From a bacterium (GTDB lineage: Bacteria > Patescibacteriota > Minisyncoccia > UBA6257 > GWB1-50-10), in contig DAIDAY010000002.1 of NCBI GenBank assembly GCA_027310365.1, positions 1-63,842 on the forward strand: 63,842 bases of DNA, read 5' to 3'. The translations under genes were made by a program, and so were the position numbers. Below are positions 28,371 through 62,168 of the stretch, piece by piece. The first letter of the stretch is position 1, and each line of letters opens with the position of its first letter. The notes beneath the pieces are model-generated. The model was not told the DNA's origin, ran no database searches, and was given only the letters and a program-made list of their open reading frames with translations.

Positions 28371-28570
28371 CTTGCAGTGGCGGGAGGAATCAAACAACGA
28401 CCATCCGCTCTGCGGCAGATTGTCGTTCTAACACCCCTCGGTTTAGTACCTGCCTGCGCAGGCAGGTTTCCGCCGAGGGAGACCAACGCGTTCTCTCTTC
28501 GCCAACTCCTGTTCAAATCCTTCCCAGAAACCAAAACAAGACAATACAAGGCCGTCTCCTTTTGGTTTTG

Positions 28571-28657
28571 CGGAGGGTACAGGATTTGAACCTGTGAGGG
28601 GATTTCTCCCCAAGCGCATTTCGAGTGCGCCGCACTAGACCACTATGCGAACCCTCC
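28571..28657 (-). tRNA. tRNA-Ser (anticodon CGA)
   Basis: Folded by hand. Acceptor GGAGGGT/ACCCTCC, anticodon stem GCGCA/TGCGC with loop CTCGAAA, a long variable arm, and T-arm ACAGG-TTCAAAT-CCTGT. CCA is not encoded. Confidence 0.9.
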
Positions 28658-28686
28658 GTTATTTTCCATGAACAGAAGTTGGTATG

Positions 28687-28759
28687 TGCCCCCGGACGGA
28701 ATTGAACCATCATCATCCCCTTAGGACGGGGCCGCTACTGTCCGTTGAGCTACGGGGGC
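28687..28759 (-). tRNA. tRNA-Arg (anticodon CCT)
   Basis: Acceptor GCCCCCG/CGGGGGC, anticodon loop GTCCTAA, and T-arm GATGG-TTCAATT-CCGTC. The D-stem and the 27:43 pair are imperfect. Confidence 0.8.
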
Positions 28760-28940
28760 AAGATTTACCCACTCGCCGTCTCTTCATAGATACTATCGAT
28801 TTAAGAGCTTGTCAATTGGACCATTACGACTTTCTTGATGGGGATGCCGGCGTGGGGGTTATCATCAGAGCACTGCACCTTTCCAATATATCCCGCCATT
28901 CATTTACTAACCCCTGAGTATCGTAAGGAGGTGAATCGCA

Positions 28941-29312
28941 ATGCTGTCTCAAGACAAGCAACGCGATATTGTCACTGAAGCTCTTCGTCATCTCGGAAGA
29001 GAATATGATCGGGTACATTTCAACTGCCTCACGTTCGTGCGACTGGTGTATGAGAACGTTGGCCTCAAACTTCCCCCGCTTCGACTCAATATTCTGCCCT
29101 CTCAATTGACCAACCCACCAGTTGGCTTCATGCTGTATCTGAAACACAAGACCGCATCGAAGGATCGAAGATTCACTCATGTAGCCATTGTTTTGGATAA
29201 CTGCACCTGCATCCATTGTTCAAAGTTTTTCGGGAACGCAGTCGTCATAACAGAATACGAGAAACTCTTTGAGATGTACGACCTGGCCATGGAGCAAACC
29301 GGATCGGGATAA
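28941..29312 (+). CDS. NlpC/P60-like cysteine peptidase domain protein
   Basis: Strong SD (AAGGAGGTG). FNCLTFVRLVYENVG (catalytic Cys context) and THVAIVL (His). Confidence 0.6.
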   Translation: MLSQDKQRDIVTEALRHLGREYDRVHFNCLTFVRLVYENVGLKLPPLRLNILPSQLTNPPVGFMLYLKHKTASKDRRFTHVAIVLDNCTCIHCSKFFGNAVVITEYEKLFEMYDLAMEQTGSG

Positions 29313-29326
29313 TATCGCTTTTTAAT

Positions 29327-29352
29327 GGAAGTATCGGAACTACTTCCATTTT
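29327..29352 (+). terminator. rho-independent terminator
   Basis: GGAAGTA-TCGGAAC-TACTTCC followed by ATTTTT. Confidence 0.7.
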
Positions 29353-29792
29353 TATTCTCATTTTAATGAGCAAAGCTTAACACTCCATCTTTTTCCAAAG
29401 AAATAAGAGACCCCCCCAAAGGTCTCTTAAGTTATGTACAGCGGGCTGCACCCGTCTCCAATCTTCAGTTGGTGCCACTTCCTGGGTAAACAACTTTACA
29501 GTGGTCCCAGCAATGACTGAAGAAGTGGAGAGGGCTCGAGAATTATTTGTGATCAACAAAGAAACCCGGTTAGACAACTCTCAATACAACATCGAAGATT
29601 TCATCGAGGCCTGCTTGCGTTACCACGAAAATGACAGTAATATAGCTGTTGGGAAATTGAAGGAAGAAAAATAGTGAAGCTCTCCGCCTTCAAGCACGGG
29701 AGCTTCCCGGAAGCGGAATACGAGATTCGGGATGCCATCCGTTCATTCCTGCCGCACGGCGGCGGGGCTTTCCGGGCGGGGCTGGCAAAACG

Positions 29793-29864
29793 CACTCTTA
29801 GCTCAGTGGTAGAGCGTTCCCTTGACATGGGAAAGGCCGGGAGTTCGATCCTTCCAGGGTGCAC
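29793..29864 (+). tRNA. tRNA-Val (anticodon GAC)
   Basis: GCACTCT acceptor, D-arm GCTC-AGTGGTA-GAGC, anticodon stem TTCCC/GGGAA with loop TTGACAT, and T-loop TTCGATC. Confidence 0.9.
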
Positions 29865-29982
29865 ACAGATAGGATAAAAGATTCTCTTCGTGATTTTTTC
29901 ACATCAGCAGGGAAATGGGTAGCGCGAGAATCCGTTGACTCCGCATGCAAGCAGGGCTTCCTTCGGGGTATGGCCGAAGGCT

Positions 29983-30465
29983 CTAGAACCCTACCCATTC
30001 AATCAGCGTTTCAAGGAGTGTTTCTTCATACTCGCCCTCGTGAACACTCTTTCCTTCAAGAAATTTTTTTACCTCTCCCTCGATACCCTCCGCGAGGGGA
30101 ATTTTCAGATAAGGATTGGCGATCGCTTTCTTTTTCAATACCAGGATAGCGCTGCGGTGCGGCTTCGGCACAATGGCGAAGCCGCTTATGTCGGCATAGC
30201 GGTAAACCGTTTCGGAGTCGCCGATTTTGAATCCTTCACTGCTCAGTTTGAATTTCACGTTTTCCGGCTTTCGCTCACCGAGGTAGACGACCATGATGCC
30301 GCTGATAACCAGAAAAACGAAAAAAAAGAAATTCTTCTTCAGCAGCGCGAAAAGAATTATCAAGAAGAAAGCAACGGCGAAGATGGAATACCACCCTGCG
30401 CCTTTCGCCGAATAATTGAATTCGGGAGCTTCCCAAACTATTTCATTTTTTTCTGTCGCGTACAT
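29983..30465 (-). CDS. hypothetical membrane protein
   Basis: The track ORF starts at a TTG (30486); the first ATG is at 30465 (MYATEKNEIVWEAPEF). Two adjacent TM helices are followed by a soluble domain. Confidence 0.5.
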   Translation of the reverse strand: MYATEKNEIVWEAPEFNYSAKGAGWYSIFAVAFFLIILFALLKKNFFFFVFLVISGIMVVYLGERKPENVKFKLSSEGFKIGDSETVYRYADISGFAIVPKPHRSAILVLKKKAIANPYLKIPLAEGIEGEVKKFLEGKSVHEGEYEETLLETLIEWVGF

Positions 30466-30538
30466 GTAAGCCCCGAGGGGAATCAAACTCCTGTTTACGC
30501 GCTGCTGTGTTCCCCGCTTAAGTTAGACGATAAACTCT

Positions 30539-30616
30539 TGGTAGCCTCAATGGGATTCGAACCCATGTTACCGCCGTGAAAGGGCGATGTCCTGGACCGG
30601 GCTAGACGATGAGGCC
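30539..30616 (-). tRNA. tRNA-Glu (anticodon TTC), CCA encoded
   Basis: D-arm GTCT/GGAC, anticodon stem TCGCC/GGCGG with loop CTTTCAC, T-arm ATGGG-TTCGAAT-CCCAT, and 3' ACCA. The 1:72 pair is G-U. Confidence 0.85.
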
Positions 30617-30916
30617 ATTCTCACTCGATCTGAAGTAAGCGGAGTACTCATCATGTACAAACAGTATAAAGCTTTTTTGAGCTTCTGAAAAGAGACGGAT
30701 TTTCCGAGAGGGTTCGTCGAACGGAACAGTGGGCGGCCAACGTATTTTACGTTACCACAATGATTTTTTTCTGGGTCATGGTTTTCCGTGAACCAGAACC
30801 TTGCCCAACAGGCAAATCTGAAGGTATCCATCGCCGCTTCAAGGGATGTTTTCGGCTTCTCTCAAGATGCGGATGGATGCCGCCCGCTGTTTATAATCGT
30901 AATTGAGCAGGGAGGG

Positions 30917-31918
30917 CTATATGCCGCACCCGCTTTGCTGCCGCGGCTGGGCCGGCTGGCCGGCGCCGATGCCGCAGCTGCTTCCGCTGCTCTGCCCGCG
31001 TGGCTGGCCGACTTGGGCGGAAACAAGCGCGTATCCCGCAGCGCTTGAATAATCGGCCCCAAGCACTTCTTGCGGATTGATGTCTTTCCAATCGATGCCC
31101 TTATTTTTCAGGTATGTCGCGATAGTAAGATAGACATCGGGGAACCAGTAAGAATTGGCGGCAAGAGCTGCTTTCCACATCTGTTCTTCGGTTGCGCCTT
31201 GAGATGCCATGAGTTCCAGGAGACCCAGCATCGCCATGCCGTGGTTGCAGTCCGGGAAATGTGTTGAATTGCCGCAACAGGGGCGGTAGATGCCTCTTGA
31301 GATCTTATCGACAAGGGCTTGCTGTTCCGGTGTCAGCGTAAAGAACGAATGACGGCTGTAGTGATCCATTGCGCTGCCTTTGGCGATCGTCCAGCCGCCG
31401 GTCGCGGCGAAATTTTGCGTGCCGCCGTACTTCGGGTCGACCATTTCTCCGGATTCCAGTATTGGGTTTTTCTGGGCGAGACCGAGCGCCCAGAACAGGT
31501 TGAGGAGATAGCCGGCGTTGTCCTGCGTGATTTTTATTTTGCCGTCGTTTTTGCCCAGCAACAAATTGTTGTCTTCGTCGGTGAATGCGCCTCTCTGTTC
31601 GTAGATCGCCCTGAATTGACCGGCGTCAATCGCGCCTGCGCTCACGAGTTGCGCGCCGAGGTTGCCCCACGTGGCCGGCAGAACGACGCCCGCCGAGGGC
31701 ACGACGCTTTCCTCCAGTTCAGATCCCCGCACTCCCTGCGGAGAAGTCGGCGAAGTCGCCTGCCGTTGGGGCGTGTTCCGGAGTCCGGTGGTGTACACCC
31801 ATGCGCCGGCGATTATGGCCGTCGAGACAAGAATGCTCGCCGGGAGCAAATAATCTCTTTTGGATTTTGCGGCCGGCGGAGCATCTTTGCCTATTTCATT
31901 TCGCGTTTCTTCTTCCAT
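30917..31918 (-). CDS. membrane-anchored extracytoplasmic protein with a conserved Cys motif (YRPCCGNS..F.DCNHG), unknown family
   Basis: N-terminal TM (LLPASILVSTAIIAGAWVY). Clear paralogy to the C-terminal half of 58556..60217. The C-terminus is a Gly/Gln-rich tail ending SGCGI. Confidence 0.7.
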   Translation of the reverse strand: MEEETRNEIGKDAPPAAKSKRDYLLPASILVSTAIIAGAWVYTTGLRNTPQRQATSPTSPQGVRGSELEESVVPSAGVVLPATWGNLGAQLVSAGAIDAGQFRAIYEQRGAFTDEDNNLLLGKNDGKIKITQDNAGYLLNLFWALGLAQKNPILESGEMVDPKYGGTQNFAATGGWTIAKGSAMDHYSRHSFFTLTPEQQALVDKISRGIYRPCCGNSTHFPDCNHGMAMLGLLELMASQGATEEQMWKAALAANSYWFPDVYLTIATYLKNKGIDWKDINPQEVLGADYSSAAGYALVSAQVGQPRGQSSGSSCGIGAGQPAQPRQQSGCGI

Positions 31919-31923
31919 GGCTC

Positions 31924-32556
31924 TTATTTTAGTTTTGCGACTTCAGCGGCCAACTGATCGTTCCGGATGCCCATTTGCGGATCGTCGAGAACATACCTGA
32001 CTATCCCTCCTTTATCCATGAGCACGAAGGTGTGTCCTGGGAGCGATCCCGGGTGCATGGAAGACGGCATTCCCAGCATGTTGAATTTATTCGAAACCGC
32101 CGCTCCTGTGTCAAAGACTACGGTCGCTTGAGCCAGTTCCGGCATTTTATCGATTGCTTTCTGCCAGTCTTCTTTTGCGTCGACCAGCACTGTCAGAACG
32201 ACGGTGTCAGCCGTCCTGAACCGATCGTCTTTTGCTAAGGCGACGATTTGATTCCAGCATGCCGGATAGCACATCAACCCTTCGCTGAAGAAGAGAATGA
32301 CGTTTTTGCCGCGCAGGCTGTCGGATGAGTACGTGTTCCCGTTGCGATCAGCAAGCGAGAACGGCGGCGATTGTTTTCCCATCAAACCATTCAGGAACGC
32401 AAGCGAAGTATTTTGCTCCGCGTTGGCATGCATGGGATCGGCTGCCGAAGCGCCGGCCGGCGCACTGGTCTTGTTCCGGCCGCCGAAGTAAAACAGCGCG
32501 GCTACGATGAAGACCGCAACTGCAACGAATACTATTATTTTTGTGTTATTTTTCAT
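31924..32556 (-). CDS. membrane-anchored thioredoxin-fold (AhpC/TSA/redoxin-like) protein
   Basis: N-terminal TM. FSLADRNGNTYSSDSLRGKNVILFFSEGLMCYPACWNQ has the redoxin-type layout with a CxxxC. Confidence 0.7.
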   Translation of the reverse strand: MKNNTKIIVFVAVAVFIVAALFYFGGRNKTSAPAGASAADPMHANAEQNTSLAFLNGLMGKQSPPFSLADRNGNTYSSDSLRGKNVILFFSEGLMCYPACWNQIVALAKDDRFRTADTVVLTVLVDAKEDWQKAIDKMPELAQATVVFDTGAAVSNKFNMLGMPSSMHPGSLPGHTFVLMDKGGIVRYVLDDPQMGIRNDQLAAEVAKLK

Positions 32557-33445
32557 GTTGTTTTTTGTCCTCCGGAGCCTCTTCGACGGCGGAGGATTTC
32601 AATTGGCGTATCGCTTTTTTTACGATGAGAATGATCACCCCGATGAGGAGAATCGCCCAGACATATTCAGGTACGATCGTTATGAAGCCGTTGACCGAGT
32701 TCGAAATCCTGGTGAGAAATATGTTTACGCTTATCTGGCTCCCTGCATGGACAAACAGCCGATTCATCAGAGCCAAATAGAGAATCAATATCCCCATCGC
32801 CAAGAAGATGATCCCTGAGATGGCTTCGGAGACGGCGATGTCGATTTTTTTGTTGCCCAACGGGTATGCAATCCGTTTTTGGAACGTTCTCCTCAGCTTC
32901 TGTGCGACGCCAGTCTTATCTGCGACGAGAGAAAGGAGGAATAGGGGAGCGACCATGCCGAACACGTAGCTCAAGGTATAAACTCCTCCCCACACTATCG
33001 ATCCGGGAAGAATCGCGAGCGCCAGAACGCCGGCTAATACCGGCGCGCAGCAAGCGGAAGCGATGCCGGAAAAAACACCGAGAACGAAAACCGAGAACGC
33101 GTTGTGCTTCTTCAGAGTCGGGTTGACCCGAAACGGCAGCGGGAAGCGCTTGCCAGTAAGCAGAATCAGTCCCAGCAAGATTAAGAACAAGCTGCCGGCG
33201 GCGAAAATCGCGTTGTGGTAGCTGCTCACGAACTGGCCGAGCGCGGCGGCCCCGAGACCTATCGGCAGAAATACGGCGAGGATTCCCAAGAAAAACAGGA
33301 AAGTCATCAGGAACACTTTATACCGCTCCCGAAAGATAGAAGCGAAATACGCGGGCAAAAGCACCGTGATGCAGCACGGCGCAAAGAGCGCTGCTGCTCC
33401 AGCGATGAATGCCGCTATGATTGATGCACTGAGCAATAATTCCAT
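32546..33445 (-). CDS. CcdA/DsbD-family thiol-disulfide transmembrane electron-transfer protein
   Basis: Multi-TM, with FAPCCITVLLPAY in TM1 and SACCAPVLAG in a later TM. Confidence 0.65.
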   Translation of the reverse strand: MELLLSASIIAAFIAGAAALFAPCCITVLLPAYFASIFRERYKVFLMTFLFFLGILAVFLPIGLGAAALGQFVSSYHNAIFAAGSLFLILLGLILLTGKRFPLPFRVNPTLKKHNAFSVFVLGVFSGIASACCAPVLAGVLALAILPGSIVWGGVYTLSYVFGMVAPLFLLSLVADKTGVAQKLRRTFQKRIAYPLGNKKIDIAVSEAISGIIFLAMGILILYLALMNRLFVHAGSQISVNIFLTRISNSVNGFITIVPEYVWAILLIGVIILIVKKAIRQLKSSAVEEAPEDKKQHEK

Positions 33446-33477
33446 AATGTTCGTTCTGTAAATCTATAAAAGCAAAA

Positions 33478-33500
33478 ACCCGCCAGGTCGTTCGGCGGGT
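33478..33500 (-). terminator. rho-independent terminator (minus strand)
   Basis: Minus strand reads ACCCGCC-GAACGACCU-GGCGGGU followed by UUUUGCUUUU. Confidence 0.7.
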
Positions 33501-33521
33501 GCATGGACCTCGGATCAATCC

Positions 33522-34037
33522 TCAGTTCTCCCCGGCTGGACCCCGCTCAGCAGTCCATCTCTCCGCGAATCGGAGAGCTTTCTGCGGAATGGACCGGGAA
33601 CAGCCATGCACCCTTTGCGGTGCATGCGGATATTTTTTTTCGCGTAAGGCAATCCAGCGCAAAAGCCATCGTTTTGACGGATAAAGCTCCGGGTCGTCGC
33701 GCCGGCATCTCCCGCGAGAAGAAATTTGCAGCGGCGACGTTCTCTGCGCCACCGGCCCGAAAAGCGGGGATGCGGCGATCAATAAGACAAAAAGCGCCAG
33801 GAACGAGGCGCCGGCGCTCACCGCGCTTTGCGCAAAATTTTGCAGTCCGGAAATATGATGAAACGCCTCGGCGAGAGGGCCGCTGTTGGCGAACGGCGCG
33901 CAATTGTCACTCGACAGCGCGGAAAGAGGGCAGGAATGCCGGCCATTATAATTCGCCATGCTGATCCCGAATACTCCAAACAAGCCAACGGCTACCAAGC
34001 TGGCGACAACTACGACGGCAATGATTCCCGATCGCAT
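33522..34037 (-). CDS. small Cys-bearing membrane protein (paralog of 62169..62615), possibly frameshifted
   Basis: TM1, then SCPLSALSSDNC, then TM2, then RRDD, as in the paralog. The C-terminal part diverges, and a motif resembling the paralog's end appears in another frame. Confidence 0.45.
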   Translation of the reverse strand: MRSGIIAVVVVASLVAVGLFGVFGISMANYNGRHSCPLSALSSDNCAPFANSGPLAEAFHHISGLQNFAQSAVSAGASFLALFVLLIAASPLFGPVAQRTSPLQISSRGRCRRDDPELYPSKRWLLRWIALREKKYPHAPQRVHGCSRSIPQKALRFAERWTAERGPAGEN

Positions 34038-34148
34038 GGCATTGTCATTTTAGCATAGACCAATCACAATTTTCAATTGCGCCCGCCGGAAGTTCCCGCC
34101 GCGCCGAAGCCCGGCGGCGAAGCGCGGGAGACAGGGTGGATGCGGGGG

Positions 34149-36542
34149 CTATGAGCGCAAGCGGGGTTCCACGCGCTTTAAGAGAACCGCGTTCGTCGCA
34201 ACGATGATTGAAGATGCGGACATGAGGAGCGCGGAGATTTCCGGGCGCAGCGACCAGCCGAGTGCATGGTAGAATACGCCGGCGGCGACTGGAATTGAAA
34301 GCACGTTGTAAACCGCCGCCCAGAAAAGATTCTGTTTCATTTTGACAACGGTAGCCTTGCTCAAGCGGATTGCCGCTACGATATCGTAGGGATCGGATTT
34401 CATGAGCACAATATTGCCGGTTTCGATGGCTACGTCGGTGCCGGCGCCGATGGCGATGCCGATGTCCGCCTGCGCCAGCGCCGGCGCATCATTGATGCCG
34501 TCGCCGACCATCGCCACGAATTTACCCTCGCCCTGGAGTTTCTTGACCCATGTGGCCTTGTCGGCCGGCAAGACATCGGCGAAGACCCGGTCGATGCCGA
34601 GTTGCTCCGCGATCGCCCCGGCGGTGCGTTCGTTGTCGCCGGTAATCATGATGATTTCTATACCGTTCTTGCGAAGCTCCGCAACCGCCCGCTTGGAATT
34701 TTCCCGGGCCGTGTCTGCCACCGCGATTGCTCCAATAATTTCTTTGTCGAGCGCGAGGAGCATCGCCGTCTTCCCCTCGTTCTGCAGCTGCTCCAACTTC
34801 TGCCGCGCCTCGTCGCTCATCGGCACCGCATGCTCCTCCATGAGCCGCTGGTTGCCCAAGAGCACCAAGTGCCCTTCGGTGTCCACTTTGCCCTGCAGCC
34901 CGAAGCCAGGTTCCACTTTGAATTCCGCGACATCCGGCTTATCGGCATTCAGAATATCCGCTTCTTTTTGAATGGCGGCGTCGAGCGGATGAGAGGATTT
35001 TTTGCCCAAACCCGCTGCCAAACCCACGATGAATCCCTTCACGCCGTGGCCGGCGACCGCTTCGAATCGAGAAACGTTCAGCAGTTCGAGACTTTCTCTC
35101 GATGCTTTGTCCACGATCGTCTTGGCCAGCGGGTGTTCGGAGTGCTTTTCGATTGAGGCGGCAATGCGCAGGATCTCGGCTTGTACATTCTGGCTCTTCG
35201 CCTCGATGAACGAGGTGACATCCGTTACCGCCGGCTCTCCCTTGGTCAGCGTTCCGGTTTTATCCAGGATCATCGCGTCGATTTTGGAGGTTTTCTCGAG
35301 CGTCGTCGCGTCTTTGATGAGAATATTGTGCTTGGCGCCGAGGCCGGTGCCGACGGCGACCGCGGTCGGCGTGGCAAGGCCCAAGGCATCCGGGCAGGCG
35401 ATGACCACCGTGGAGACGGCGAACGTCAGCGCGGTGATGATGCCGGCGCCGGCGATGAAATACCAGCCGAAGAAAGCGGCGAGCCCTGAACCGATGGCGA
35501 CGATGACCAAGATTCCCGCAGCCTTGTCGGCAATGCGCTGGCCGGGCGCTTTGGAATTCTGGGCGGTTTCCACCATTTTGATGATCTGGGCGAGTACTGT
35601 CTCGCCGCCGACCTTCGTCGCCTTGAATTTGATCGCCCCGCGCTGGTTGATCGAGCCGCCGACGACTTGGCCGCCGACTTTCTTGTGAATCGGCAGGGAT
35701 TCGCCGGTGACCAGGGCTTCGTCGATGTAGGTTTCTCCTTCGATAACTTCGCCGTCGACGGGGATCTTGTTGCCAGGGCGAATGACGACGATGTCGCCTT
35801 TCGCCACTTCGGCGCTGGGGATGGTTACTTCCTTGCCGTCGCGAATGACGGTCGCGTGAGGCGGCACAAGATCGAATAAAGCCCTCAAGGCCTCTGACGT
35901 GCCCCGTCGGGAACGCATTTCCATCCAATGACCAAAGAGCACGAAGGTTACCAGGGCCGCCGCCGCTTCGTAGAATGTCCGTGCGTCCGGTTGCGTGAAG
36001 GTCAGTAACACGCTGAAAAGGTATGCCGCCAGCACGCCGGTGACCACGAGCACCGCCATGTTGAGCCGCCGCGCCTTAAGCGACCAATAAGTTCCGGCGA
36101 TGAAGATCGAGCCGGTCCAGAAAACGACCGGCGTCGTCAGGATAAAGAGGAGCAGGTTGACTGGGATCGGCGATGGCAACGCCAACTGAAGGTATTCGGT
36201 TGCCACTGGCGAATAAAGAAAGATGGGGATGAGGAGAAGAAACGAAATCCAAAACCTGCGCCGCATGTCGGCTTCCATTTTCTTCGCCATCCTCGGGTCG
36301 GTCATCGCCGCTTCGTGATCTTTATGGCTCATCTCCGAGGCGTCGTGCGTGCCGTGTTCTTGCGCCGCCCCCTCGCCTCTTCTTTCTCTCACGAGTTCCA
36401 TGCCGCAGCCGGGACAGCGGCCGGGCGCCGATTGCCGGACTTCCGGATGCATGGGGCAGGTGTAAACCACCGCCTCTTTTTCGGCGGACGGCGCATCCCT
36501 TCGTGGTGCGTGCTCCTTATGCATGTTGTTGTCATGATTCAT
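34149..36542 (-). CDS. P1B-type heavy-metal ATPase (CopB-like: His-rich N-terminus plus CPMHPE metal-binding domain)
   Basis: [17 protein letters not shown], the TM motif IACPDALGLATP, and an N-terminal YTCPMHPEVRQSAPGRCPGCGMEL. Start reassigned to the ATG at 36542 (MNHDNNMHKEH) because a promoter occupies 36558-36587. Confidence 0.9.
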   Translation of the reverse strand: MNHDNNMHKEHAPRRDAPSAEKEAVVYTCPMHPEVRQSAPGRCPGCGMELVRERRGEGAAQEHGTHDASEMSHKDHEAAMTDPRMAKKMEADMRRRFWISFLLLIPIFLYSPVATEYLQLALPSPIPVNLLLFILTTPVVFWTGSIFIAGTYWSLKARRLNMAVLVVTGVLAAYLFSVLLTFTQPDARTFYEAAAALVTFVLFGHWMEMRSRRGTSEALRALFDLVPPHATVIRDGKEVTIPSAEVAKGDIVVIRPGNKIPVDGEVIEGETYIDEALVTGESLPIHKKVGGQVVGGSINQRGAIKFKATKVGGETVLAQIIKMVETAQNSKAPGQRIADKAAGILVIVAIGSGLAAFFGWYFIAGAGIITALTFAVSTVVIACPDALGLATPTAVAVGTGLGAKHNILIKDATTLEKTSKIDAMILDKTGTLTKGEPAVTDVTSFIEAKSQNVQAEILRIAASIEKHSEHPLAKTIVDKASRESLELLNVSRFEAVAGHGVKGFIVGLAAGLGKKSSHPLDAAIQKEADILNADKPDVAEFKVEPGFGLQGKVDTEGHLVLLGNQRLMEEHAVPMSDEARQKLEQLQNEGKTAMLLALDKEIIGAIAVADTARENSKRAVAELRKNGIEIIMITGDNERTAGAIAEQLGIDRVFADVLPADKATWVKKLQGEGKFVAMVGDGINDAPALAQADIGIAIGAGTDVAIETGNIVLMKSDPYDIVAAIRLSKATVVKMKQNLFWAAVYNVLSIPVAAGVFYHALGWSLRPEISALLMSASSIIVATNAVLLKRVEPRLRS

Positions 36543-36927
36543 GGTTTTGTTTCCTGTATGATACCCCCCCTGGGTATTTTCTGTCAACGGCCAAAGCGAG
36601 CGCCATCGCCAGAAATCCCGATTCTTCCAAAATATCCAGCGGCGCGGCCCGCGCCGCCATCACGCCGACGATCCAGAGTGCAGCCCACACAGCGACGATC
36701 CGCACCTTCACGCCGCCAAATAACAGCATTGCCACCAATGCATCATTGACCCCGATGATCATTGCAAATGTCCCCGTGGATACCGGCACTATACCCGCGA
36801 AGAACGCCCGCTCGATGATTTCGCCGATCTCTTGCGGGGCGAAAAATGCCGCCAGGGAATTCGCCAGGAAGACCAGCGCGAGTCCGATGCGGATGAGAAA
36901 GGGAGGGGAAAAAAATTTATTCATCAT
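36532..36927 (-). CDS. DoxX-like small membrane protein
   Basis: FLIRIGLALVFLANSLAAFF and 3-4 TM segments. Its last roughly 19 codons overlap the ATPase promoter. Confidence 0.45.
   Translation of the reverse strand: MMNKFFSPPFLIRIGLALVFLANSLAAFFAPQEIGEIIERAFFAGIVPVSTGTFAMIIGVNDALVAMLLFGGVKVRIVAVWAALWIVGVMAARAAPLDILEESGFLAMALALAVDRKYPGGVSYRKQNHES
36558..36587 (-). promoter_or_regulatory. promoter with an embedded CsoR-type operator
   Basis: Minus strand reads TTGACA-GAAAATACCCAGGGGGGG-TATCAT. The dyad ATACCC-N5-GGGTAT (36561-36577) fills the spacer. An AGGAAA SD and the ATG follow. Confidence 0.65.
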
Positions 36928-36937
36928 CGTTGAAAAT

Positions 36938-38644: not shown

Positions 38645-39905
38645 GTGAACGATTGGCCGCTTTCTCCCTGCGCCGCAGATAGGACTGCAGTGAACCCTTG
38701 ATTTTCAACGCCCGGAGAACGTCTTTAAATTTTATCACTTTCAGAAACTCAAAGTCGAACCCCAGTTTGAATAATTCACTGGCAGAAAGGCCGGCGAGGA
38801 TCCGCATCAGGTATTGCCATTGATCTTCCGTCAGATCTCCATAGAGTTTCTCGGCGATGAGGTAACTGAGCCGCCATTTTTTACCGATGTACGCCGCCCA
38901 ACGATCATCGTATTCGGCGAGAGCTCTCCGGCTGACGTCGTTCGCCGAGAGTTTTCGGTCGATGATCTCGGCGGCCATTCTACCGGAATGAAGCGCGTGC
39001 CTGATCCCTTCGCCGGCAAGGGGATTGATTTGCATAGCCGCGTCGCCGATGACCAAGAAGCCATTCGAGGAATGGTTCTTGATTCCGCCGGTGATGTAGA
39101 TATTTCCCCCGTGCAAATCGACAGGTTCCGCGTCGCCGAACTGCGGGAATTTCTCCATAAATTTTTTCAACAGCGCCATCATGCCGGCCGTGCCGTGGTT
39201 GTCTTCCGGGATGCCGTGCTTGCTTGCGCCATAAACCGCTACGCCGACTTTACACTGGTGTTCGCCGAAGGGGAATATCCAGCCGTAGCCGTGGGGAACA
39301 TAGACGTCGCTGAAATAGAACGCCAGGACGTTCCTGAATTCCGGCGGAACGCCCTCGACGATCAGTTCTATGCCGATGGCGGCCGCTTCGGGTTCCGCTT
39401 CGCGCAGACCAATCTTCGAAGCGAGAACGCCGACAGGTCCGGAAGCGTCAACGACGACCTTCCCCCTGATGACCCCTTCTCCGAAAACGCCCTTGCATTT
39501 CACGCCGACGACAGAATCTCCTTCAAGAGTCGGTTCTTCTGCCGCGGTGCTGATCATCACTTTTCCGCCGTGTTTGACGGTTTCAGCGGCAAGAAACTGC
39601 TTCAGTTCATCGAATGCGAACACATAGCCGCGGGTTTCTCCGTAGTCCCATGTTTTCGCCCCGCCGCGCGCGGCAATGAGGACTTTAGACCACGTTCCGC
39701 GTCCGATCTCGAAAGGTAGATCGAAATCCTTGAAAGTTTCGAGGGGCGTGCCGCCGCTCGAGAAATTCGGCCGGCCGATGCCGGTCGACTTTTCCATCAA
39801 TAAAACCTTCCGTCCTCGTCGGGCAAGCTCTCTAGCGCATTCTCCGCCAGCCGGTCCCGAACCGACGACGATAACGTCAAATGCTTCGGAAAAATTGTTG
39901 TGCAT
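38613..39905 (-). CDS. FAD-dependent geranylgeranyl-reductase-family oxidoreductase
   Basis: FDVIVVGSGPAGGECARELARRGRKVLLMEK dinucleotide fold and a GDAA motif (IGDAAMQINPLAGEGI). Confidence 0.85.
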   Translation of the reverse strand: MHNNFSEAFDVIVVGSGPAGGECARELARRGRKVLLMEKSTGIGRPNFSSGGTPLETFKDFDLPFEIGRGTWSKVLIAARGGAKTWDYGETRGYVFAFDELKQFLAAETVKHGGKVMISTAAEEPTLEGDSVVGVKCKGVFGEGVIRGKVVVDASGPVGVLASKIGLREAEPEAAAIGIELIVEGVPPEFRNVLAFYFSDVYVPHGYGWIFPFGEHQCKVGVAVYGASKHGIPEDNHGTAGMMALLKKFMEKFPQFGDAEPVDLHGGNIYITGGIKNHSSNGFLVIGDAAMQINPLAGEGIRHALHSGRMAAEIIDRKLSANDVSRRALAEYDDRWAAYIGKKWRLSYLIAEKLYGDLTEDQWQYLMRILAGLSASELFKLGFDFEFLKVIKFKDVLRALKIKGSLQSYLRRREKAANRSHVATTHQKQG

Positions 39906-39917
39906 GTTTTTTAATTT

Positions 39918-40502: not shown

Positions 40503-40522
40503 GGCGCTGCGTTTCAATCGCT

Positions 40523-40804: not shown

Positions 40805-40829
40805 GTTTGATGAATGATTTATGTTTTCG

Positions 40830-41507: not shown

Positions 41508-41523
41508 GGTGGCGTGCCGAAAT

Positions 41524-42747: not shown

Positions 42748-42752
42748 GCCGA

Positions 42753-57513: not shown

Positions 57514-58053
57514 TTATCCAATGAATGCTTTGATCGCCTTTTCGTCAAAACGTTCCAGTGTTTCCGATTGCCCCCGTTTGGTCAAAACGATTTTCGCGTC
57601 GTAGCCATTCGGGGCAAGATAAACATTGTCCGGATATCGTTTTATGAGGTCGGTGAGTTTGGCAACAAGATCGGATGCGCAGGAATATTTTTTACAGTTG
57701 TATTGCACGATAACGCCGGGTTTGCCTCTGCCATCGGCGTGTTCGAGCATGTGGCGCTGCGTTCCGTCAGGTAGGGGACGGTCGGTGATATGCGTCGCAG
57801 GCATATCCTCCGTGTGGCCCTGCACGATCGTCGGCGGCAGGATCGGGCGTGTCGAGATATACCAGCCAAGGCTGAAAATCGTTCCGCCCGCGATCAGAAC
57901 GGCCGAAGCGGCGCGCACCGCCGTTTTCAACGAGCGCTTACGCCGCAAAGCCAGGCGTCCTTCCGCTTTGCGCAGCTTCCTTTGCTGGTAGCGTTCCCGT
58001 CGGGACGGTTGCCCGGCCCCCGCATTGCGCGTTTTTTCCGCCGATTCGTTCAT
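57514..58053 (-). CDS. DUF3105-like membrane-anchored protein
   Basis: PPTIVQGHTEDMP...RHMLEHADGRGKPGVIVQYNC follows the recalled DUF3105 pattern (PPxxGxH...HxLEHG-V-Y). Confidence 0.65.
   Translation of the reverse strand: MNESAEKTRNAGAGQPSRRERYQQRKLRKAEGRLALRRKRSLKTAVRAASAVLIAGGTIFSLGWYISTRPILPPTIVQGHTEDMPATHITDRPLPDGTQRHMLEHADGRGKPGVIVQYNCKKYSCASDLVAKLTDLIKRYPDNVYLAPNGYDAKIVLTKRGQSETLERFDEKAIKAFIG
57611..57840. repeat. 230-bp near-identical repeat, copy 1
   Basis: Matches 60337-60566 at 228 of 230 positions by hand alignment (differences at 57638 and 57769). Confidence 0.9.
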
Positions 58054-58550
58054 TGGAGTTTCTTAATGATTGTGTAGCCGCTTTTCTCCCAATCGATCAT
58101 CCCGCCCGCCAGATGAGACACTTGGGTGTAGCCAAGATCCATCAGCTCCTGTGCCGCTCTTTCGCTCATCCGGCCGCTGCGGCAGTAGAGCACTATTTTT
58201 GCATTTTTGTCTTTCGGCAATTTGCCGAGATTGCCTGCTATTTCATTGTAGGGGATAAAGGCGTCGGTGTCCTGTATTTCGCCTTCGTAGGGAATGTGGA
58301 CATTCACAAAAAAGAAATCCTTCTTTTCGAGCATCGATGCCAATTCCTGGCTGGTAATAGAGGGGACGCTGGAGTTTCTTTGGGCTTGGTTGGTGCAGCC
58401 ACCCTGATTCAACCAGCAAACAGCGCTGTCTCCGATGAGTGTCTGGACGGATCGCGGCGGAGTTTCGCGCGATTGCGGAATGCTGAACAGCGCGATGCCG
58501 CCTGCCGCTGCTACCGCAATGCCAACAAGGATAATCGCCGTGCTCTTCAT
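58050..58550 (-). CDS. membrane-anchored rhodanese-domain sulfurtransferase
   Basis: The ATG at 58550 gives MKSTAIILVG.... The active-site loop is LYCRSGRMS. Confidence 0.85.
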   Translation of the reverse strand: MKSTAIILVGIAVAAAGGIALFSIPQSRETPPRSVQTLIGDSAVCWLNQGGCTNQAQRNSSVPSITSQELASMLEKKDFFFVNVHIPYEGEIQDTDAFIPYNEIAGNLGKLPKDKNAKIVLYCRSGRMSERAAQELMDLGYTQVSHLAGGMIDWEKSGYTIIKKLQ

Positions 58551-58555: not shown

Positions 58556-60217
58556 TTATACGCCACACCCTCCGCCTCCTTGCTTTTGCGGCACCAAGTT
58601 GGGATTCTTGGCGATAATCTCTTGAAGCGGCCGGGCGATGTTTTTCGCCCAACCGGGGCCACTGGAATAATCGAAGCCAATAATTTCTTTAGGATCGACG
58701 TTTTCCCAATCGATGTTTTTGGCGAGCTTGTAATACAACGCAGTCTGGATGTAGGTTTGCGGAAACCAGAAGGAATTGAACTGCAGCGCAACTCGGTACA
58801 AATCGTCTGTGGAAAGCCCCTGCGCCGCGCCGAGTTCGATCAAGCCGAGCATGGCTGAACCGTGGTTGCAATCCTGGAAAAACGCGGAGTTGCCGCAGCA
58901 GGGACGGTAGACGTTTTGCGCCACCTCGAGGGCGACCGCCTCCTGTTCCGGCGTAAGCTGAACAATTTCGTATTTGTTAAAATACTTGCCGCCGTTGTCC
59001 TCCCGACCCAGCGTCCAGCCGCCGGTCGAAGCGAAGTCGAACAGCGATTTCCCGTTCACCGGGCTCTTTTCGTTGAATTGGGTTTTATTGGCAAGCCCGA
59101 GCGGCCATAGCAGATTGATCATGATGCCGGCATTGTCGGCGTTGATGGCAAGCGGCTCGCTGGAGGAGGTGGTGAGCAGCGCAAGCTCCTTCTCGGTTAT
59201 GCCGCGGTCTTTGTATACATCTTTGAATTTTGCGATATCGATGATGCCGTTCTGCGCCAATTTGACCACCGCGTCACCCAACACTATTTTCGTTTGAAAC
59301 CCCCGCCGGGGCAGCACTTTCGCGACCACTGCGCCGTAGAGCTGATTGCCGGTTCCGGCATTCCGGACGCCGCTCACCGCGTTCATCAGGAGCGTTCCAT
59401 CTTTTGCGGCTGCGCTTGCCGCGACTTGTTCTCGGCTCCACAGCGGCGCCGCTGAAAAAAGGATCAGGAAAAAAACCGCAAGAAGCGTCCGATAGGACAG
59501 CAATGAGTCGGATTGCTCCGGGGATTTTTGTCCGCCCGCCGCCGGCTCGACCGCGCAGGTCTCGCACGCTTTCGCTTGAGAAAGTTTCCTCGTGGAGAGG
59601 AAAAGCGCGGCTCCGAAGAACGCCGCGCTCAAGAATTTCAATTCGAGGCCCTTGAACGGCAGGACGGCAACGCCACCGGCGATGCCGATCGCCGAAAGAA
59701 GGAAAGAACCGCAGATGGGGCAGGCCGCCGCAAAGGCGCCGAATATTGCGCCGAACGCATTGCCACCTTGATCTTTTATGCTGTGCAGCCCGGAGTTCCG
59801 CCATGCATAAACGGCTACCGCCAAGCTCATGCCGAAAAGAATCATACTCAGAAGAGTGAAGAGGACATACGGCCAGAAATAGAGTGGCACGTTCCCGTAC
59901 ATCCCAGAGAAAGTGACCCACGTGGTGGTTTTTGAAAGCAGCCACCAGTAAAGAAGCCCGAGCGCCAGCGCGCCATCGATTGCCACGAAAAGATACAGCG
60001 GCTGCCCGAATATCGTTTTCAGGGGAGAAGCGTGAAGCTCATGCGCCGCTTTTTCTTCGTCGCCGCCATTCTCTGCGGCGTGTGTGGTGATCTCGATGTT
60101 GCAGGTATGGCGCTCCCTGCACCACGCCTCGCACTTTTCCGCCCATTCTTTTTCGGCATACCTTAATCCGCATTCCGCGCATTGATACGATGTTCCTTTC
60201 TTCGTTATGACTTGCAT
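58556..60217 (-). CDS. fusion protein: zinc ribbon plus 4-TM CxxC module plus extracytoplasmic YRPCCGNS domain
   Basis: The N-terminus is YQCAECG...CEAWCRERHTC. The TM region has ILFGMSLAVAVY and AAACPICGSFLLS. The C-terminal 300 aa are paralogous to 30917..31918 and end GGGGCGV. Confidence 0.75.
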   Translation of the reverse strand: MQVITKKGTSYQCAECGLRYAEKEWAEKCEAWCRERHTCNIEITTHAAENGGDEEKAAHELHASPLKTIFGQPLYLFVAIDGALALGLLYWWLLSKTTTWVTFSGMYGNVPLYFWPYVLFTLLSMILFGMSLAVAVYAWRNSGLHSIKDQGGNAFGAIFGAFAAACPICGSFLLSAIGIAGGVAVLPFKGLELKFLSAAFFGAALFLSTRKLSQAKACETCAVEPAAGGQKSPEQSDSLLSYRTLLAVFFLILFSAAPLWSREQVAASAAAKDGTLLMNAVSGVRNAGTGNQLYGAVVAKVLPRRGFQTKIVLGDAVVKLAQNGIIDIAKFKDVYKDRGITEKELALLTTSSSEPLAINADNAGIMINLLWPLGLANKTQFNEKSPVNGKSLFDFASTGGWTLGREDNGGKYFNKYEIVQLTPEQEAVALEVAQNVYRPCCGNSAFFQDCNHGSAMLGLIELGAAQGLSTDDLYRVALQFNSFWFPQTYIQTALYYKLAKNIDWENVDPKEIIGFDYSSGPGWAKNIARPLQEIIAKNPNLVPQKQGGGGCGV

Positions 60218-60236: not shown

Positions 60237-60749
60237 TCATGTGCCGATGAATTTCGCGATGGCTTGCTCGTCAAAGCCGCCGAGAACCTGCAAAGCGTCG
60301 AGTTTCGTCAAGATAATTTTACCATCATACTCGCCGGGGGCAAGATAAACATTGTCCGGATATTGTTTTATGAGGTCGGTGAGTTTGGCAACAAGATCGG
60401 ATGCGCAGGAATATTTTTTACAGTTGTATTGCACGATAACGCCGGGTTTGCCTCTGCCATCGGCGTGTTCGAGCATGTGGCGCTGCGTTCCGTCGGGTAG
60501 GGGACGGTCGGTGATATGCGTCGCAGGCATATCCTCCGTGTGGCCCTGCACGATCGTCGGCGGCAGATTGGGACGAGTGGAAGCGAACCATACGAGACCG
60601 CCCACTGCCCCGAGGGCCGCGGCGACGCCTAACGTTCGGGCGGCGGCTTTTGTGGAACGGTGTTTCATTGCGGCATCCTTTCGAGCCGCAAGCTTTTCCT
60701 GCTTTCTCGGCTCATGCCGATCTTGATTCGTCGATTGTCGAGATGTCAT
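60237..60749 (-). CDS. DUF3105-like membrane-anchored protein (paralog)
   Basis: The ATG at 60749 gives MTSRQSTNQ.... The central 77 aa are nearly identical to 57514..58053. Confidence 0.65.
   Translation of the reverse strand: MTSRQSTNQDRHEPRKQEKLAARKDAAMKHRSTKAAARTLGVAAALGAVGGLVWFASTRPNLPPTIVQGHTEDMPATHITDRPLPDGTQRHMLEHADGRGKPGVIVQYNCKKYSCASDLVAKLTDLIKQYPDNVYLAPGEYDGKIILTKLDALQVLGGFDEQAIAKFIGT
60337..60566. repeat. 230-bp near-identical repeat, copy 2
   Basis: See copy 1. The offset is 2726 bp in direct orientation, and both copies lie inside DUF3105-like genes. Confidence 0.9.
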
Positions 60750-60763
60750 GTTTTTGGAGAGGA

Positions 60764-61315
60764 TTATCGTCGGTTCGTTTTGCAGACCGCCGGATGCTGA
60801 ATTTGTTTTGCCGTGAGGTGAAGGGAAACGGCGAGTAAGACCACCGCCAAGATGCCGAATTCCCCGCCGCCGAGCGGCAGAAAAGCCAAGATGCCGGACG
60901 CGCCCGCGAGCGAGAAAATGCTCGTTAAGAAGAGCGATCCGCAAGCGGCGCAACCCATGCCCGAAACGCCGCTCGTTATGCCGAAAAAACCGATGCCGAA
61001 TCTCGCCCGCTCGATCCCGTCAATCCTGCGTCGCAAGAAGTAGAAAATCATGGCGACATTCATCCCGAACAGAATTGCCGTAGCAACGGTGTATGAGGCG
61101 GAAAGCAGGGTAAAATTCGTCGCGATTGATCCGATAAGATTCAATGGCAGTTCAAGTTTATCCGAAAAAGACATCCTGGGATGGCCCATGATGCGGATGA
61201 TGAGCGGAATGTTGGGGAGCCACGTGGCAAACACAAAAACCACCGTGCTTATGCCAAGGGCAAGAATGACGTATGTGGGTTTTCGGAAAACCTTTTGTAC
61301 GGCTTGAGGCGCCAT
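60764..61315 (-). CDS. 4-TM membrane protein with an intramembrane CAAC motif (unknown family)
   Basis: The ATG at 61315 gives MAPQAVQKV.... ILFGMNVAMIFYFL and GVSGMGCAACGSLFLTS, plus a C-terminal Cys after TM4. Confidence 0.65.
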   Translation of the reverse strand: MAPQAVQKVFRKPTYVILALGISTVVFVFATWLPNIPLIIRIMGHPRMSFSDKLELPLNLIGSIATNFTLLSASYTVATAILFGMNVAMIFYFLRRRIDGIERARFGIGFFGITSGVSGMGCAACGSLFLTSIFSLAGASGILAFLPLGGGEFGILAVVLLAVSLHLTAKQIQHPAVCKTNRR

Positions 61316-61316
61316 A

Positions 61317-62078
61317 TCATCCGCCCTGCAGGGCAAGTTCGATTAATTGTTTTATCGCGGCGTAAGGCTGTGCGCCGGCCAGCAACTGTTTGCCGATGAT
61401 AAACGACGGCGTGCCGGTCACGCCGAACGATTCGCCTTCCGCCCGGTCGGCATCCATTCCCTGCTGGTACCGATCTCCTTTGCTCTGCACAAGCGCCAAG
61501 ACTCTCGCGGCATCGCTTGCGCCGATGGCCTGCGTCGTGAAGCTCATAATGGCATCCTGCGTTGCCCAGCCGGTATTTTCTATGCCCTGATTATTGTAGA
61601 TCGCCCTGTGCCAAGCGTAGAATTTATCCGGCGCCGCTTCCCAGACGGCGCGGCCGAATCGGCCGAGCGTTTGAGAATCCGGCCCCAAGAACTGAAAATC
61701 CTTATAGACGAGCTTGATTTTCCCGGTCTTGACGTATTCTTCGTAAAGCTGGGGCATGGACTGCGTCTCGAACCTCCGACAGAAGGGGCATTGGTAGTCG
61801 AGCCAATAGGCCACCGCAAGCGGCGCGTTTGGGTTTCCGATGAAAGGCTGGCCTTCGATTTTCACCTTCGAGATGTCCGCGGTTTGCGCTGCCGGTTGCT
61901 GCGGTTGCGCTCCCGCATTACCGCTGGCGATCCCGGGGGCGGAGTTGTTTTTACCAACGGAGTAAATCACCGATCCGCTGATCAAAACGCCGGCGACAAG
62001 TATGGAAATCGGAAGCATCCAACTGCCGCCGCTCGGCCTTCCATTTTGCAATTTTTCCTCGTAGTTTTGATTTTTCAT
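61317..62078 (-). CDS. DsbA-family thiol:disulfide oxidoreductase, membrane-anchored
   Basis: The ATG at 62078 gives MKNQNYEE.... A signal anchor, then the YQCPFCRRFE active site. Confidence 0.85.
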   Translation of the reverse strand: MKNQNYEEKLQNGRPSGGSWMLPISILVAGVLISGSVIYSVGKNNSAPGIASGNAGAQPQQPAAQTADISKVKIEGQPFIGNPNAPLAVAYWLDYQCPFCRRFETQSMPQLYEEYVKTGKIKLVYKDFQFLGPDSQTLGRFGRAVWEAAPDKFYAWHRAIYNNQGIENTGWATQDAIMSFTTQAIGASDAARVLALVQSKGDRYQQGMDADRAEGESFGVTGTPSFIIGKQLLAGAQPYAAIKQLIELALQGG

Positions 62079-62168
62079 GAATGAAAATGACGTGCATGCA
62101 CAAACAAAATGCCAGCGCTTGCACGATCCGCGCCGCCGATGCAACTCGATGACTGCGCGAATCGCCCG

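Follow-up and report, generated by a model that had tools for sequence, protein, structure and literature searches.

Two open reading frames (ORFs), A and B, on the minus strand of a 63,842-nucleotide stretch of a Patescibacteriota genome (assembly GCA_027310365.1, contig DAIDAY010000002.1; hereafter the window) encode paralogous proteins that share a predicted extracytoplasmic domain with an invariant Cys/His loop and a C-terminal tail tipped by Cys. The positions and lengths assigned to them in an earlier note, made from the sequence alone, are exact (333 residues for A and 553 for B). The ORFs and their parts, delimited with AlphaFold2 models and their predicted local distance difference test (pLDDT) scores where indicated, are as follows.

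30917..31918, minus: ORF A (paralog A), a 333-residue membrane-anchored protein with a transmembrane (TM) helix, a helical domain, and a Cys-tipped tail
31796..31852, minus: single N-terminal TM anchor of A, residues 23-41 (hydropathy; AlphaFold2 helix 24-44)
31013..31723, minus: extracytoplasmic domain of A, residues 66-302 (pLDDT, invariant columns)
31238..31285, minus: loop of A, R212-P-C214-C215-G-N217-S-T-H-F-P-D223-C224-N225-H226-G227 (invariant columns)
30920..31012, minus: disordered Gly/Gln/Pro/Ser linker of A with two S-C-G-I units, SSCGIG...SGCGI (pLDDT <50, residues 307-333)
58556..60217, minus: ORF B (paralog B), a 553-residue protein with a Cys4 ribbon, a 5-TM domain, the extracytoplasmic domain, and a Cys tail
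60083..60217, minus: N-terminal cytoplasmic Cys-rich ribbon of B, C13, C16, C29, and C33 (AlphaFold2, weak Pfam)
59417..60061, minus: membrane domain of B, residues 53-267 (AlphaFold2, invariant columns)
58607..59347, minus: extracytoplasmic domain of B, residues 291-537, paralogous to that of A (40% identity)
58859..58906, minus: loop of B, R438-P-C440-C441-G-N443...D449-C450-N451-H452-G453 (invariant columns)
58559..58606, minus: linker and C-terminal GGGGCGV tail of B (pLDDT <50, residues 546-553; C551 invariant)

BLASTP alignment of A (residues 72-297) with B (residues 301-524) revealed 40% identity and 62% positives over 229 residues (E=3e-57), well above what chance would give. The homology claimed in the earlier note is therefore real, over ~230-260 rather than ~300 residues, and the sequence blocks listed there are found in both proteins: DNAG..NL.W.LGLA.K, A(T/S)GGWT, LTPEQ, YRPCCGNS..F.DCNHG.AMLGL.EL, WFP..Y, and IDW....P.E..G.DYSS. 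The tails also end as described, A with SGCGI and B with GGGGCGV. The domain of B is closer to a plasmid homolog from Burkholderia contaminans (44% identity, E=4e-70) than to A, indicating that the two window copies are old paralogs.

A word-indexed search returned more than 6,400 clusters of A-type homologs and ~990 relatives of B, the best of which, among the matches listed, share the fused B architecture; an exhaustive search of 50%-identity representatives yielded 747 clusters at E<=1e-3 and 284 at E<=1e-30. GTDB species genomes gave at least 600 matches, at least 599 of them confirmed, and the best 80 of these at least 599 matches all belong to Patescibacteria, mainly Paceibacteria/Parcubacteria lineages. 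Multiple paralogs per genome seem to be common. A search seeded with a divergent member extended the family to DPANN (Diapherotrites, Parvarchaeota, Aenigmarchaeota, Nanoarchaeota, and Nanohaloarchaeota) archaea, with homologs in Micrarchaeota (including ARMAN-1) and Aenigmarchaeota, plus metagenome-assembled genomes labelled Marsarchaeota. Plasmids of cultured B. contaminans (WP_027810704.1), B. thailandensis, and Paraburkholderia fungorum encode further homologs (33-36% identity, E 6e-24 to 4e-30 by tblastn), and phage genomes gave no tblastn match. The closest relative of the window, contig CAYXSS010000004.1 (locus L007), carries an A homolog, and a Candidatus Sungbacteria locus (L076) holds two family genes in tandem (~8001-8999 and the adjacent gene).

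Conservation centers on the loop. Across ~394 aligned sequences (A numbering), C214 and C215 are retained in 394/394, D223 and C224 in 393/393, and H226 in 390/393, accompanied by R212 (391/394), P213 (393/394), and N217 (393/394). The invariance that had been proposed for the CC...C-x-H cluster is thus borne out and holds in archaeal homologs, where the loop reads SYRPCCDNPTxFPDCNHGAA, and in those of Burkholderia, (F/Y)RPCCDNSTxxQDCNHGSA; non-conservation of the motif was not seen. W143 is present in 393/393 sequences, and the F-A-(S/T)-T-G-G-W loop, N255, W258, and F259 are nearly invariant. More than 25 residues, including N, D, R, T, W, and the F-A-S-T-G-G-W loop, are invariant across domains of life. 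In the AlphaFold2 model of A, the loop region has pLDDT 87-97, with the candidate ligand residues within 13 positions in sequence; C224 directly precedes a helix (residues 225-239), and the CC pair lies in the loop before it.

The fold is followed by a predicted disordered linker (median 21 residues, pLDDT <50) rich in Gly, Gln, Ser, Ala, and Pro. Cys occupies position -3 in 449/486 members, the terminal C-x-x being mostly C-G-V, C-G-I, or C-G-A. Two S-C-G units occur in 106 members, among them A, whose second S-C-G-I unit forms the C-terminus, and three occur in six members. The Burkholderia homologs keep an A-S-C-G unit, followed by 3-19 further residues.

Placement outside the cytoplasm and attachment to the membrane, both claimed previously, agree with the N-terminal regions of the family. 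A hydropathy scan found exactly one N-terminal TM helix before the domain in 117/120 A-type proteins; one homolog (P0294) begins with a lipobox lipoprotein signal (...LISGC), and the Burkholderia homologs begin with twin-arginine motifs (TRRRFL, RRRFLG, and TRRDFI), with one weak Pfam match to a twin-arginine translocation (Tat) signal. In B, five predicted membrane helices lie between the cytoplasmic Cys ribbon and the domain, which puts the latter on the outside of the cell.

AlphaFold2 models of A and B, built on 93- and 80-sequence alignments, predict a mostly α-helical domain with a small sheet. The A model has a core pLDDT >90 (84-98 over residues 70-300), and the B model has a mean pLDDT of 83.7. 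Scanning A, B, 93 members, and the three Burkholderia homologs with hmmscan against Pfam and NCBIfam gave no match on the ~240-residue domain even at E up to 10, the weak Pfam matches (DUF7128, zinc ribbons, and MerT) being confined to the ribbon and TM parts of B-type proteins. PDB sequences yielded 0 matches at E up to 10 by phmmer and profile hmmsearch. Foldseek found nothing significant in PDB (best E=6 for A and 0.3 for B, query TM-scores <=0.16) or, for the A model, in BFVD (best E=1.6). All named homologs carry the label "hypothetical protein". These searches agree with the earlier statement that the family cannot be assigned, and they gave no confident match to a characterised family with a non-metal, non-redox function. 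A limited literature search found no description of the family, and earlier publication is possible. In the libraries searched, neither the family nor its predicted fold appears to have been described. As a kind of system, copper-resistance islands with accessory thiol proteins are known.

Several named families were considered and rejected. The UniRef label DUF1266 of the P. fungorum homolog was not reproduced, a weak Tat-signal match being its only Pfam match at E up to 10, and 0/93 scanned members match PF06889. Sco1/SenC is contradicted by the absence of a PF02630 match, by the helical predicted fold, and by a CC-x8-C-x-H motif in place of CxxxC plus a distal His. No PF00403 match (HMA, CopZ, MerP) falls on the domain, HMA occurring solely as a separate N-terminal fusion partner in one homolog (P0251), and no PF04214 match links it to CopG/DUF411, which has a CxCC motif and a thioredoxin-like fold; a genuine DUF411 gene is a separate neighbor in the Burkholderia islands. 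CueP was not matched by PDB sequence, profile, or Foldseek although its structure is solved. A c-type cytochrome is set aside by the absence of CxxCH in A and B, where the spacing is C-x8-C-N-H, and LanC-like Zn sites by motif spacing and lack of matches. The CCG iron-sulfur domain PF02754 (HdrB/GlcF-type) shares a literal C-C-G tripeptide in a Cys-rich motif but gave no Pfam match and differs in spacing, C-C-x8-C-x-H here versus CX31-39CCX35-36CXXC; the extracytoplasmic position and Sec export of the domain in most lineages also argue against an iron-sulfur cluster.

A terminates a minus-strand run encoding a P1B-type ATPase, a 171-residue TM protein, a CcdA/DsbD_TM-like protein, a Redoxin/AhpC-TSA protein, and A itself, followed by a tRNA-Glu gene. 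The CcdA-like and redoxin genes overlap by 11 nucleotides, and 5 nucleotides separate the redoxin gene from A.

31924..32556, minus: TM-anchored Redoxin/AhpC-TSA thiol reductase-like protein, MCYPAC motif (Pfam; stop 5 nucleotides upstream of the A start)
32546..33445, minus: CcdA/DsbD-like membrane protein with PCC and SACCAP motifs in TM helices (PF02683)
33522..34037, minus: small TM protein with a Cys pair, cassette member c2 (no Pfam match)
34149..36587, minus: P1B-type heavy-metal ATPase with an N-terminal heavy-metal-binding domain (HMBD) and a C-P-D TM motif (Pfam, sequence)

The B run comprises genes for a DsbA-like protein, a 190-residue TM protein, a DUF3105-like protein, B, a rhodanese, a second DUF3105-like protein, a 267-residue protein, a cupredoxin, CsoR, and DsbD_2. 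The likely ATG of the rhodanese gene, at 58550, lies 5 nucleotides after the B stop codon.

61317..62144, minus: DsbA-like thioredoxin-fold protein, head of the B operon (PF13462, PF01323; kept in a related locus, L006)
60764..61336, minus: 190-residue 4-TM protein with a GCAACG motif, paralog of the B membrane domain (profile match)
60237..60953, minus: DUF3105-like paralog upstream of B (direct repeat)
58050..58550, minus: TM-anchored single-domain rhodanese, CRSGRMS loop (PF00581)
57514..58053, minus: DUF3105-like protein, His-rich, C-x4-C, downstream of the B-rhodanese pair (weak PF11303)
56200-56643, minus: cupredoxin (Pfam)
55791-56102, minus: CsoR-family repressor (Pfam)
54358-55758, minus: DsbD_2 membrane protein (Pfam)

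Pfam supports the neighbors named in the earlier note: CcdA, redoxin, and P1B ATPase beside A, and DsbA-like, rhodanese, and two DUF3105-like paralogs beside B. Its description of the ATPase as CopB-like is only loosely right, since the membrane motif is C-P-D (A-C-P-D-A-L-G-L-A-T-P) versus C-P-H in CopB, an unusual motif that differs from both CPC and CPH, which mark the classical Cu classes; the HMBD reads CPMHPE...CPGCGM. A second ATPase in the window (48134-50467) is of the standard CopA type, with HMA and CPC.

The additional parts of B are also rich in Cys. The ribbon is modelled as strands (residues 2-12) and a helix (residues 23-36) at pLDDT >90, and weak zinc-ribbon/DUF7128 matches were obtained for 28/93 aligned family members. 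TM3 of the membrane domain is broken at an invariant A-C166-P-x-C169-G motif into helices 151-164 and 167-176, a motif that we take to resemble the CPC metal site of P1B ATPases. Invariant residues are C166, P167, C169, G170, and C221, the last belonging to a C218-x2-C221 pair in the TM4-TM5 loop, which is cytoplasmic on the inferred 5-TM, N-terminus-in topology. The B N-terminal profile matches the L006 equivalent of the 190-residue TM protein (E=1e-24). No match was found for the B membrane domain in Pfam or PDB or for the 190-residue protein in Pfam; DsbB and VKOR were rejected for both, with no PF02600 or PF07884 match and, for B, no DsbB or VKOR by Foldseek. A small 4-5-TM family with an intramembrane C-x-x-C-G at a helix break (GCAACG/ACPICG) occurs free-standing beside DsbA or fused in B; its role may be that of a metal path or of a partner resembling DsbB. 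A TM family with an SCCAHY motif (c12) is weakly related to the B membrane domain (hhalign probability 60%); c13, a TM protein considered as its free-standing form, is unrelated (hhalign probability 3%).

For the neighborhoods of relatives, ORFs were called in 86 loci and clustered by BLASTP, and occurrence was counted in 80 GTDB species loci (the best 80 of at least 599). The survey revealed a recurrent metal/thiol cassette with a same-strand order of c2/c20, DUF1573, a DsbD/CcdA-like protein, one of c8, c13, or Redoxin, and the family gene, often headed by CsoR and a P1B ATPase and often trailed by HMA-DsbD_2 and cupredoxin-like genes. The DsbD/CcdA-like gene (c1) is present in 69/80 loci, at position -1 or -2; c2 occurs in 62/86 loci, and c2 or c20 in 60/80, at position -3 or -4. 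DUF1573, with a T-S-C-M-C-T motif, and the P1B ATPase (c3) are each found in 54/80, CsoR in 41/80, an ICMT-like methyltransferase (c16) in 12/80, and at least one explicit metal gene in 68/80. Redoxin c14 (16/80) and thioredoxin c29 (5/80) lie mostly just upstream of the family gene; of the 17 loci with c14, 12 have it at position -1 or -2. Each of c2 and c20 is a small TM protein carrying a pair of Cys residues; c8, soluble and helical, ends ...N-C-C-x-E, and c13 has a CPICAG motif and ends ...C-C. These unannotated proteins (c2/c20, c8, c13) hold fixed positions upstream of the family gene in loci L007-L086, and the window has counterparts at 33522-34037 and 62169-62615.

The synteny of B is kept on a 521-kb contig (L006), in the order DsbA, TM CxxC protein, small unannotated protein, B, rhodanese, small unannotated protein, and cupredoxin, with CsoR, YHS, and ATPase genes further along; the small unannotated proteins occupy the places of the DUF3105-like genes. 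In the window, a 280-nucleotide direct repeat of 92% identity lies inside the DUF3105-like genes (57576-57855 and 60302-60581). The two small genes of L006 flank its B homolog and rhodanese likewise, and if they are the same paralog pair, the high repeat identity here would suggest gene conversion.

Metal linkage recurs in three distant lineages. In a Micrarchaeota genome, the family gene is followed by two YHS proteins and a YHS-domain P1B ATPase, and in another locus, whose protein clusters with the archaeal homologs, it follows cupredoxin/COX2 and Fer4_5 proteins; the bacterial partners c1, c2, c4, and c14 are absent from the archaeal loci searched. On the conjugative plasmid of B. contaminans, the run comprises cueR, DUF2933, CcdA, a peroxiredoxin-family protein, thioredoxin, an ICMT-like protein, peroxiredoxin, a P1B ATPase, the homolog (70 nucleotides downstream of the ATPase), and an S-adenosylmethionine (SAM) methyltransferase, with a nearby block of SCO, TlpA, CcdA, DsbD, and DUF411. 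Its CcdA is 33% identical to the CcdA beside A (E=8e-41), with a shared S-x-C-C-A-P-V-L-A-G motif, and its peroxiredoxin-family redoxin is 32% identical to the redoxin beside A (E=2e-16). The P. fungorum plasmid homolog lies among P-type ATPases, HMA proteins, three DsrE, a MerR-type regulator, thioredoxin, CcdA, merB, and merA. A class I SAM methyltransferase directly adjoins the homolog in all three Burkholderia/Paraburkholderia plasmids. The one association common to all three lineages is thiophilic-metal export and sensing, to which a membrane thiol-reducing pair is added in bacteria. Fusions comprise a CopZ-like HMA, TM helix, and domain (P0251); a lipoprotein GlpE/PspE-like rhodanese followed by the domain (P0294); and BNR repeats with the domain (P0319).

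The invariance of the motif, its linkage to metal and redox genes, and the HMA and rhodanese fusions lend support to the metal or redox centre suggested in the earlier note. We would give an even chance to the reading that the domain offers Cu(I), or another soft metal, a thiolate site outside the cytoplasm that has a swinging Cys arm and is kept reduced by CcdA and redoxin. The conserved loop of Cys and His and the free Cys arm agree with such a site, as do the HMA fusion and, in B, the joining of the domain to a CPxCG membrane domain and a ribbon. From the sequences we infer the binding of a metal, its identity, the working of the arm, and the direction of transfer. The R-P-C-C-x-N...D-C-N-H-G loop would form the Cys/His metal site, and the ~20-residue disordered linker ending in C-G-[V/I/A] would act as the arm, capturing an ion at its membrane exit. 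The ion might leave the membrane at the P1B ATPase, at the CPxCG membrane domain that B carries, or at DsbD-like proteins. The arm might then deliver it to the site in the domain or pass it on to an acceptor, for example the co-encoded cupredoxin, while the co-transcribed CcdA-like protein and redoxin may hold the exposed thiols reduced, in parallel to the action of TlpA on Sco and CoxB.

The domain is probably a missing part of extracellular copper handling. Copper-export operons of monoderm bacteria, of the candidate phyla radiation (CPR), and of DPANN archaea have few recognised extracytoplasmic partners, and the abundance, extreme conservation, and fixed island place of the family indicate that it probably fills this gap. 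That CPR bacteria and DPANN archaea both have the family suggests a need common to these episymbiont groups or an exchange of genes between them. The plasmid homologs in cultured Burkholderia and Paraburkholderia make the question directly testable by genetics and biochemistry, and a structure of the domain would probably define a new metal- or thiol-binding fold.

Known systems offer partial parallels. The periplasmic Cys/His copper protein CueP acts together with P1B ATPases and has a crystal structure (PMC7558416). Like CueP of Salmonella, which accompanies CopA and GolT, the domain is extracytoplasmic, has a conserved Cys and His cluster, and is encoded beside P1B ATPases, with a Cu(I)-responsive regulator gene (cueR) in the B. 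contaminans island; unlike the ~240-residue, mostly helical domain described here, CueP is a small α/β and β-sheet protein without a C-terminal Cys arm. TlpA reduces the copper-binding cysteines of CoxB, and PCuAC passes copper via a C-terminal extension (PMC7558416). The resemblance to Sco1/SenC and PCuAC with TlpA-CcdA lies in an extracytoplasmic Cys/His protein encoded with CcdA-like and TlpA/redoxin-like proteins, in a reductant that keeps copper-binding cysteines reduced, and in transfer through a C-terminal extension, as in PCuAC (PMC7558416). The domain differs in lacking a thioredoxin fold, a CxxxC motif, and any PF02630 or PF04314 match, and no cytochrome oxidase was seen in the window or in the related CPR loci examined. 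TlpA is also said, in the title of one study, to reduce the copper-binding cysteines of the chaperone ScoI.

In Mer-type relays, the metal passes from MerP to the vicinal Cys pair of MerT and on to the cytoplasm, where MerA has a C-terminal Cys pair. In B, cysteines are similarly arranged across the membrane, with the ribbon in the cytoplasm, the CPxCG motif in the TM region, and the CC/C/H loop and terminal arm outside, and the P. fungorum homolog stands beside merA and merB; however, there is no real homology to MerT or MerP (weak MerT matches in 2/93 members, E ~0.09) and no mercuric reductase in the CPR loci. Flexible Cys-containing C-termini hand over Cu(I) in CCS (the CxC tail of domain 3) and Ctr1 (the HCH C-terminus). 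Those proteins are unrelated and act in other compartments, and the tail here carries a single Cys at -3 (S/G-C-G-V/I/A), sometimes repeated.

Several observations weigh against a Cu(I) or soft-metal carrier. The local CsoR-family repressor has a C47...H72-x3-H76 (C-H-H) fingerprint, presumably resembling that of the Ni/Co sensor RcnR, unlike the C-H-C found in Cu-sensing CsoR or the C-C found in CstR, a persulfide sensor, so its cognate metal, or the inducer of the B operon, may not be copper. Rhodanese, DsbA, and DsrE neighbors point equally to sulfur or thiol chemistry. The more than 25 invariant residues would be more usual in the active site of an enzyme than in a passive chaperone, and Tat export of the Burkholderia homologs may mean a cofactor loaded in the cytoplasm rather than Cu pickup in the periplasm.

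A thiol-based redox enzyme, as opposed to a metal carrier, is the main rival reading, and we regard it as possible, though clearly less probable. C224, which directly precedes helix 225-239, would be the nucleophile beside H226 and D223, and C214-C215 or the tail Cys would resolve the disulfide or shuttle it, in the A-type to CcdA/redoxin and in the B-type to DsbA and the TM CxxC protein. C-terminal cysteines with a shuttle role occur in MsrA, 2-Cys peroxiredoxins, and thioredoxin reductase. Cu(II) (with the domain as a cupric reductase), copper-damaged envelope thiols, or persulfide/polysulfide sulfur from the adjacent or fused rhodanese could serve as substrates. Such an enzyme would suit the tight coupling of the family gene to CcdA-like and redoxin genes (overlapping genes and a 5-nucleotide gap), the DsbD/CcdA-like gene in 69/80 loci, the thioredoxin-fold genes (c14, 16/80; c29, 5/80) mostly just upstream, the conserved DsbA–TM CxxC–B–rhodanese synteny, the rhodanese fusion, the nearby DsrE genes in P. 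fungorum, the enzyme-like conservation of polar and aromatic residues, and Tat export in Burkholderia. However, archaeal loci without a CcdA/DsbD-like or redoxin partner still keep the linkage to the ATPase and YHS, the HMA fusion and P1B ATPase adjacency are unexplained by pure thiol chemistry, and no similarity to a known oxidoreductase fold was detected.

We think it rather unlikely that the domain, instead of passively carrying a metal, is an extracytoplasmic metallo-thiol enzyme of new fold in which a Cys3His centre loaded with Cu or Zn acts on its own Cys arm, or by means of it. It might then be a cupric reductase, a Cu(I)-thiol oxidase, or a modifier of the tail or of a partner, linked to the ICMT-like and SAM methyltransferases. 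If true, this could give CPR bacteria and DPANN archaea, which are typically without quinones, a copper-coupled way to carry out thiol/disulfide or copper redox reactions at the cell surface, and plasmids with Burkholderia copper islands would have acquired the same module.

Somewhat more doubtful is a Cys3His loop serving as a structural or catalytic Zn(II) site in a protein with another surface function, its island place reflecting co-regulation under envelope stress; a thiol-alkylating or tail-modifying enzyme, a sensor, or a binding protein would be examples. Cys3His and Cys2His are the commonest structural and catalytic Zn sites, and beyond the Cys loop the domain has many other invariant residues, both polar and aromatic. 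ICMT-like genes in 12/80 loci and in B. contaminans, and the SAM methyltransferase adjacent in the three Burkholderia-type loci, would suit a modifying enzyme, and Tat export in Burkholderia would permit cytoplasmic Zn loading away from periplasmic Cu. Most members, however, have Sec-type TM anchors or are lipoproteins that fold outside the cell, a structural Zn site has no need of a conserved free Cys arm, and the linkage to P1B ATPases and Cu regulators in three distant lineages, together with the HMA fusion, is hard to ascribe to hitchhiking. That the A-B resemblance and the motif are incidental features of fast-evolving hypothetical ORFs without a specific function has a negligible chance; nothing was found in its favour, and it is already refuted by the E value between the paralogs (3e-57), thousands of homologs at 60-80% identity across candidate phyla, a near-absolutely invariant motif, and confident models of A and B.

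An unannotated gene pair recurs in 17-19/80 related loci, in which a TM protein with an S-C-C-(A/T)-H-Y motif (c12) is followed by a secreted protein with G-G-H-H-R-E-G (c10). The window holds this pair on the minus strand.

52435-53031, minus: c12, unannotated TM protein (recurrence)
51969-52442, minus: c10, unannotated secreted protein (recurrence)

Taken together, c2, c8, c13, the CPxCG membrane family, and c10/c12 suggest a larger, undescribed thiolate relay. Methyltransferase genes lie near the family gene at 4592-5251 and 9871-10485 of L091, 9925-10491 of L089, and 8189-8806 of L090, and in the window a CMAS-type methyltransferase gene (50815-51987) adjoins CopA.

Directly downstream of A lie tRNA genes for Ser, Arg, Val, and Glu (28570-30616). 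The guanine-plus-cytosine content is 0.46-0.49 before these genes and 0.53-0.59 across the metal-gene block (30000-45000), and the tRNA genes and the rise are compatible with an island inserted beside the tRNAs. Directly upstream of the ATPase gene, the minus strand (36938-40517) encodes an atypical kinase of the ABC1/UbiB type, an FAD-dependent geranylgeranyl-reductase-like protein, and a flavodoxin-like NAD(P)H (quinone) reductase, which are quinone- or isoprenoid-associated functions in an apparent Patescibacteria genome. Between the two metal-gene blocks, two adjacent GH130 genes (the β-1,4-mannooligosaccharide phosphorylase family) occupy 44803-47818 on the minus strand.

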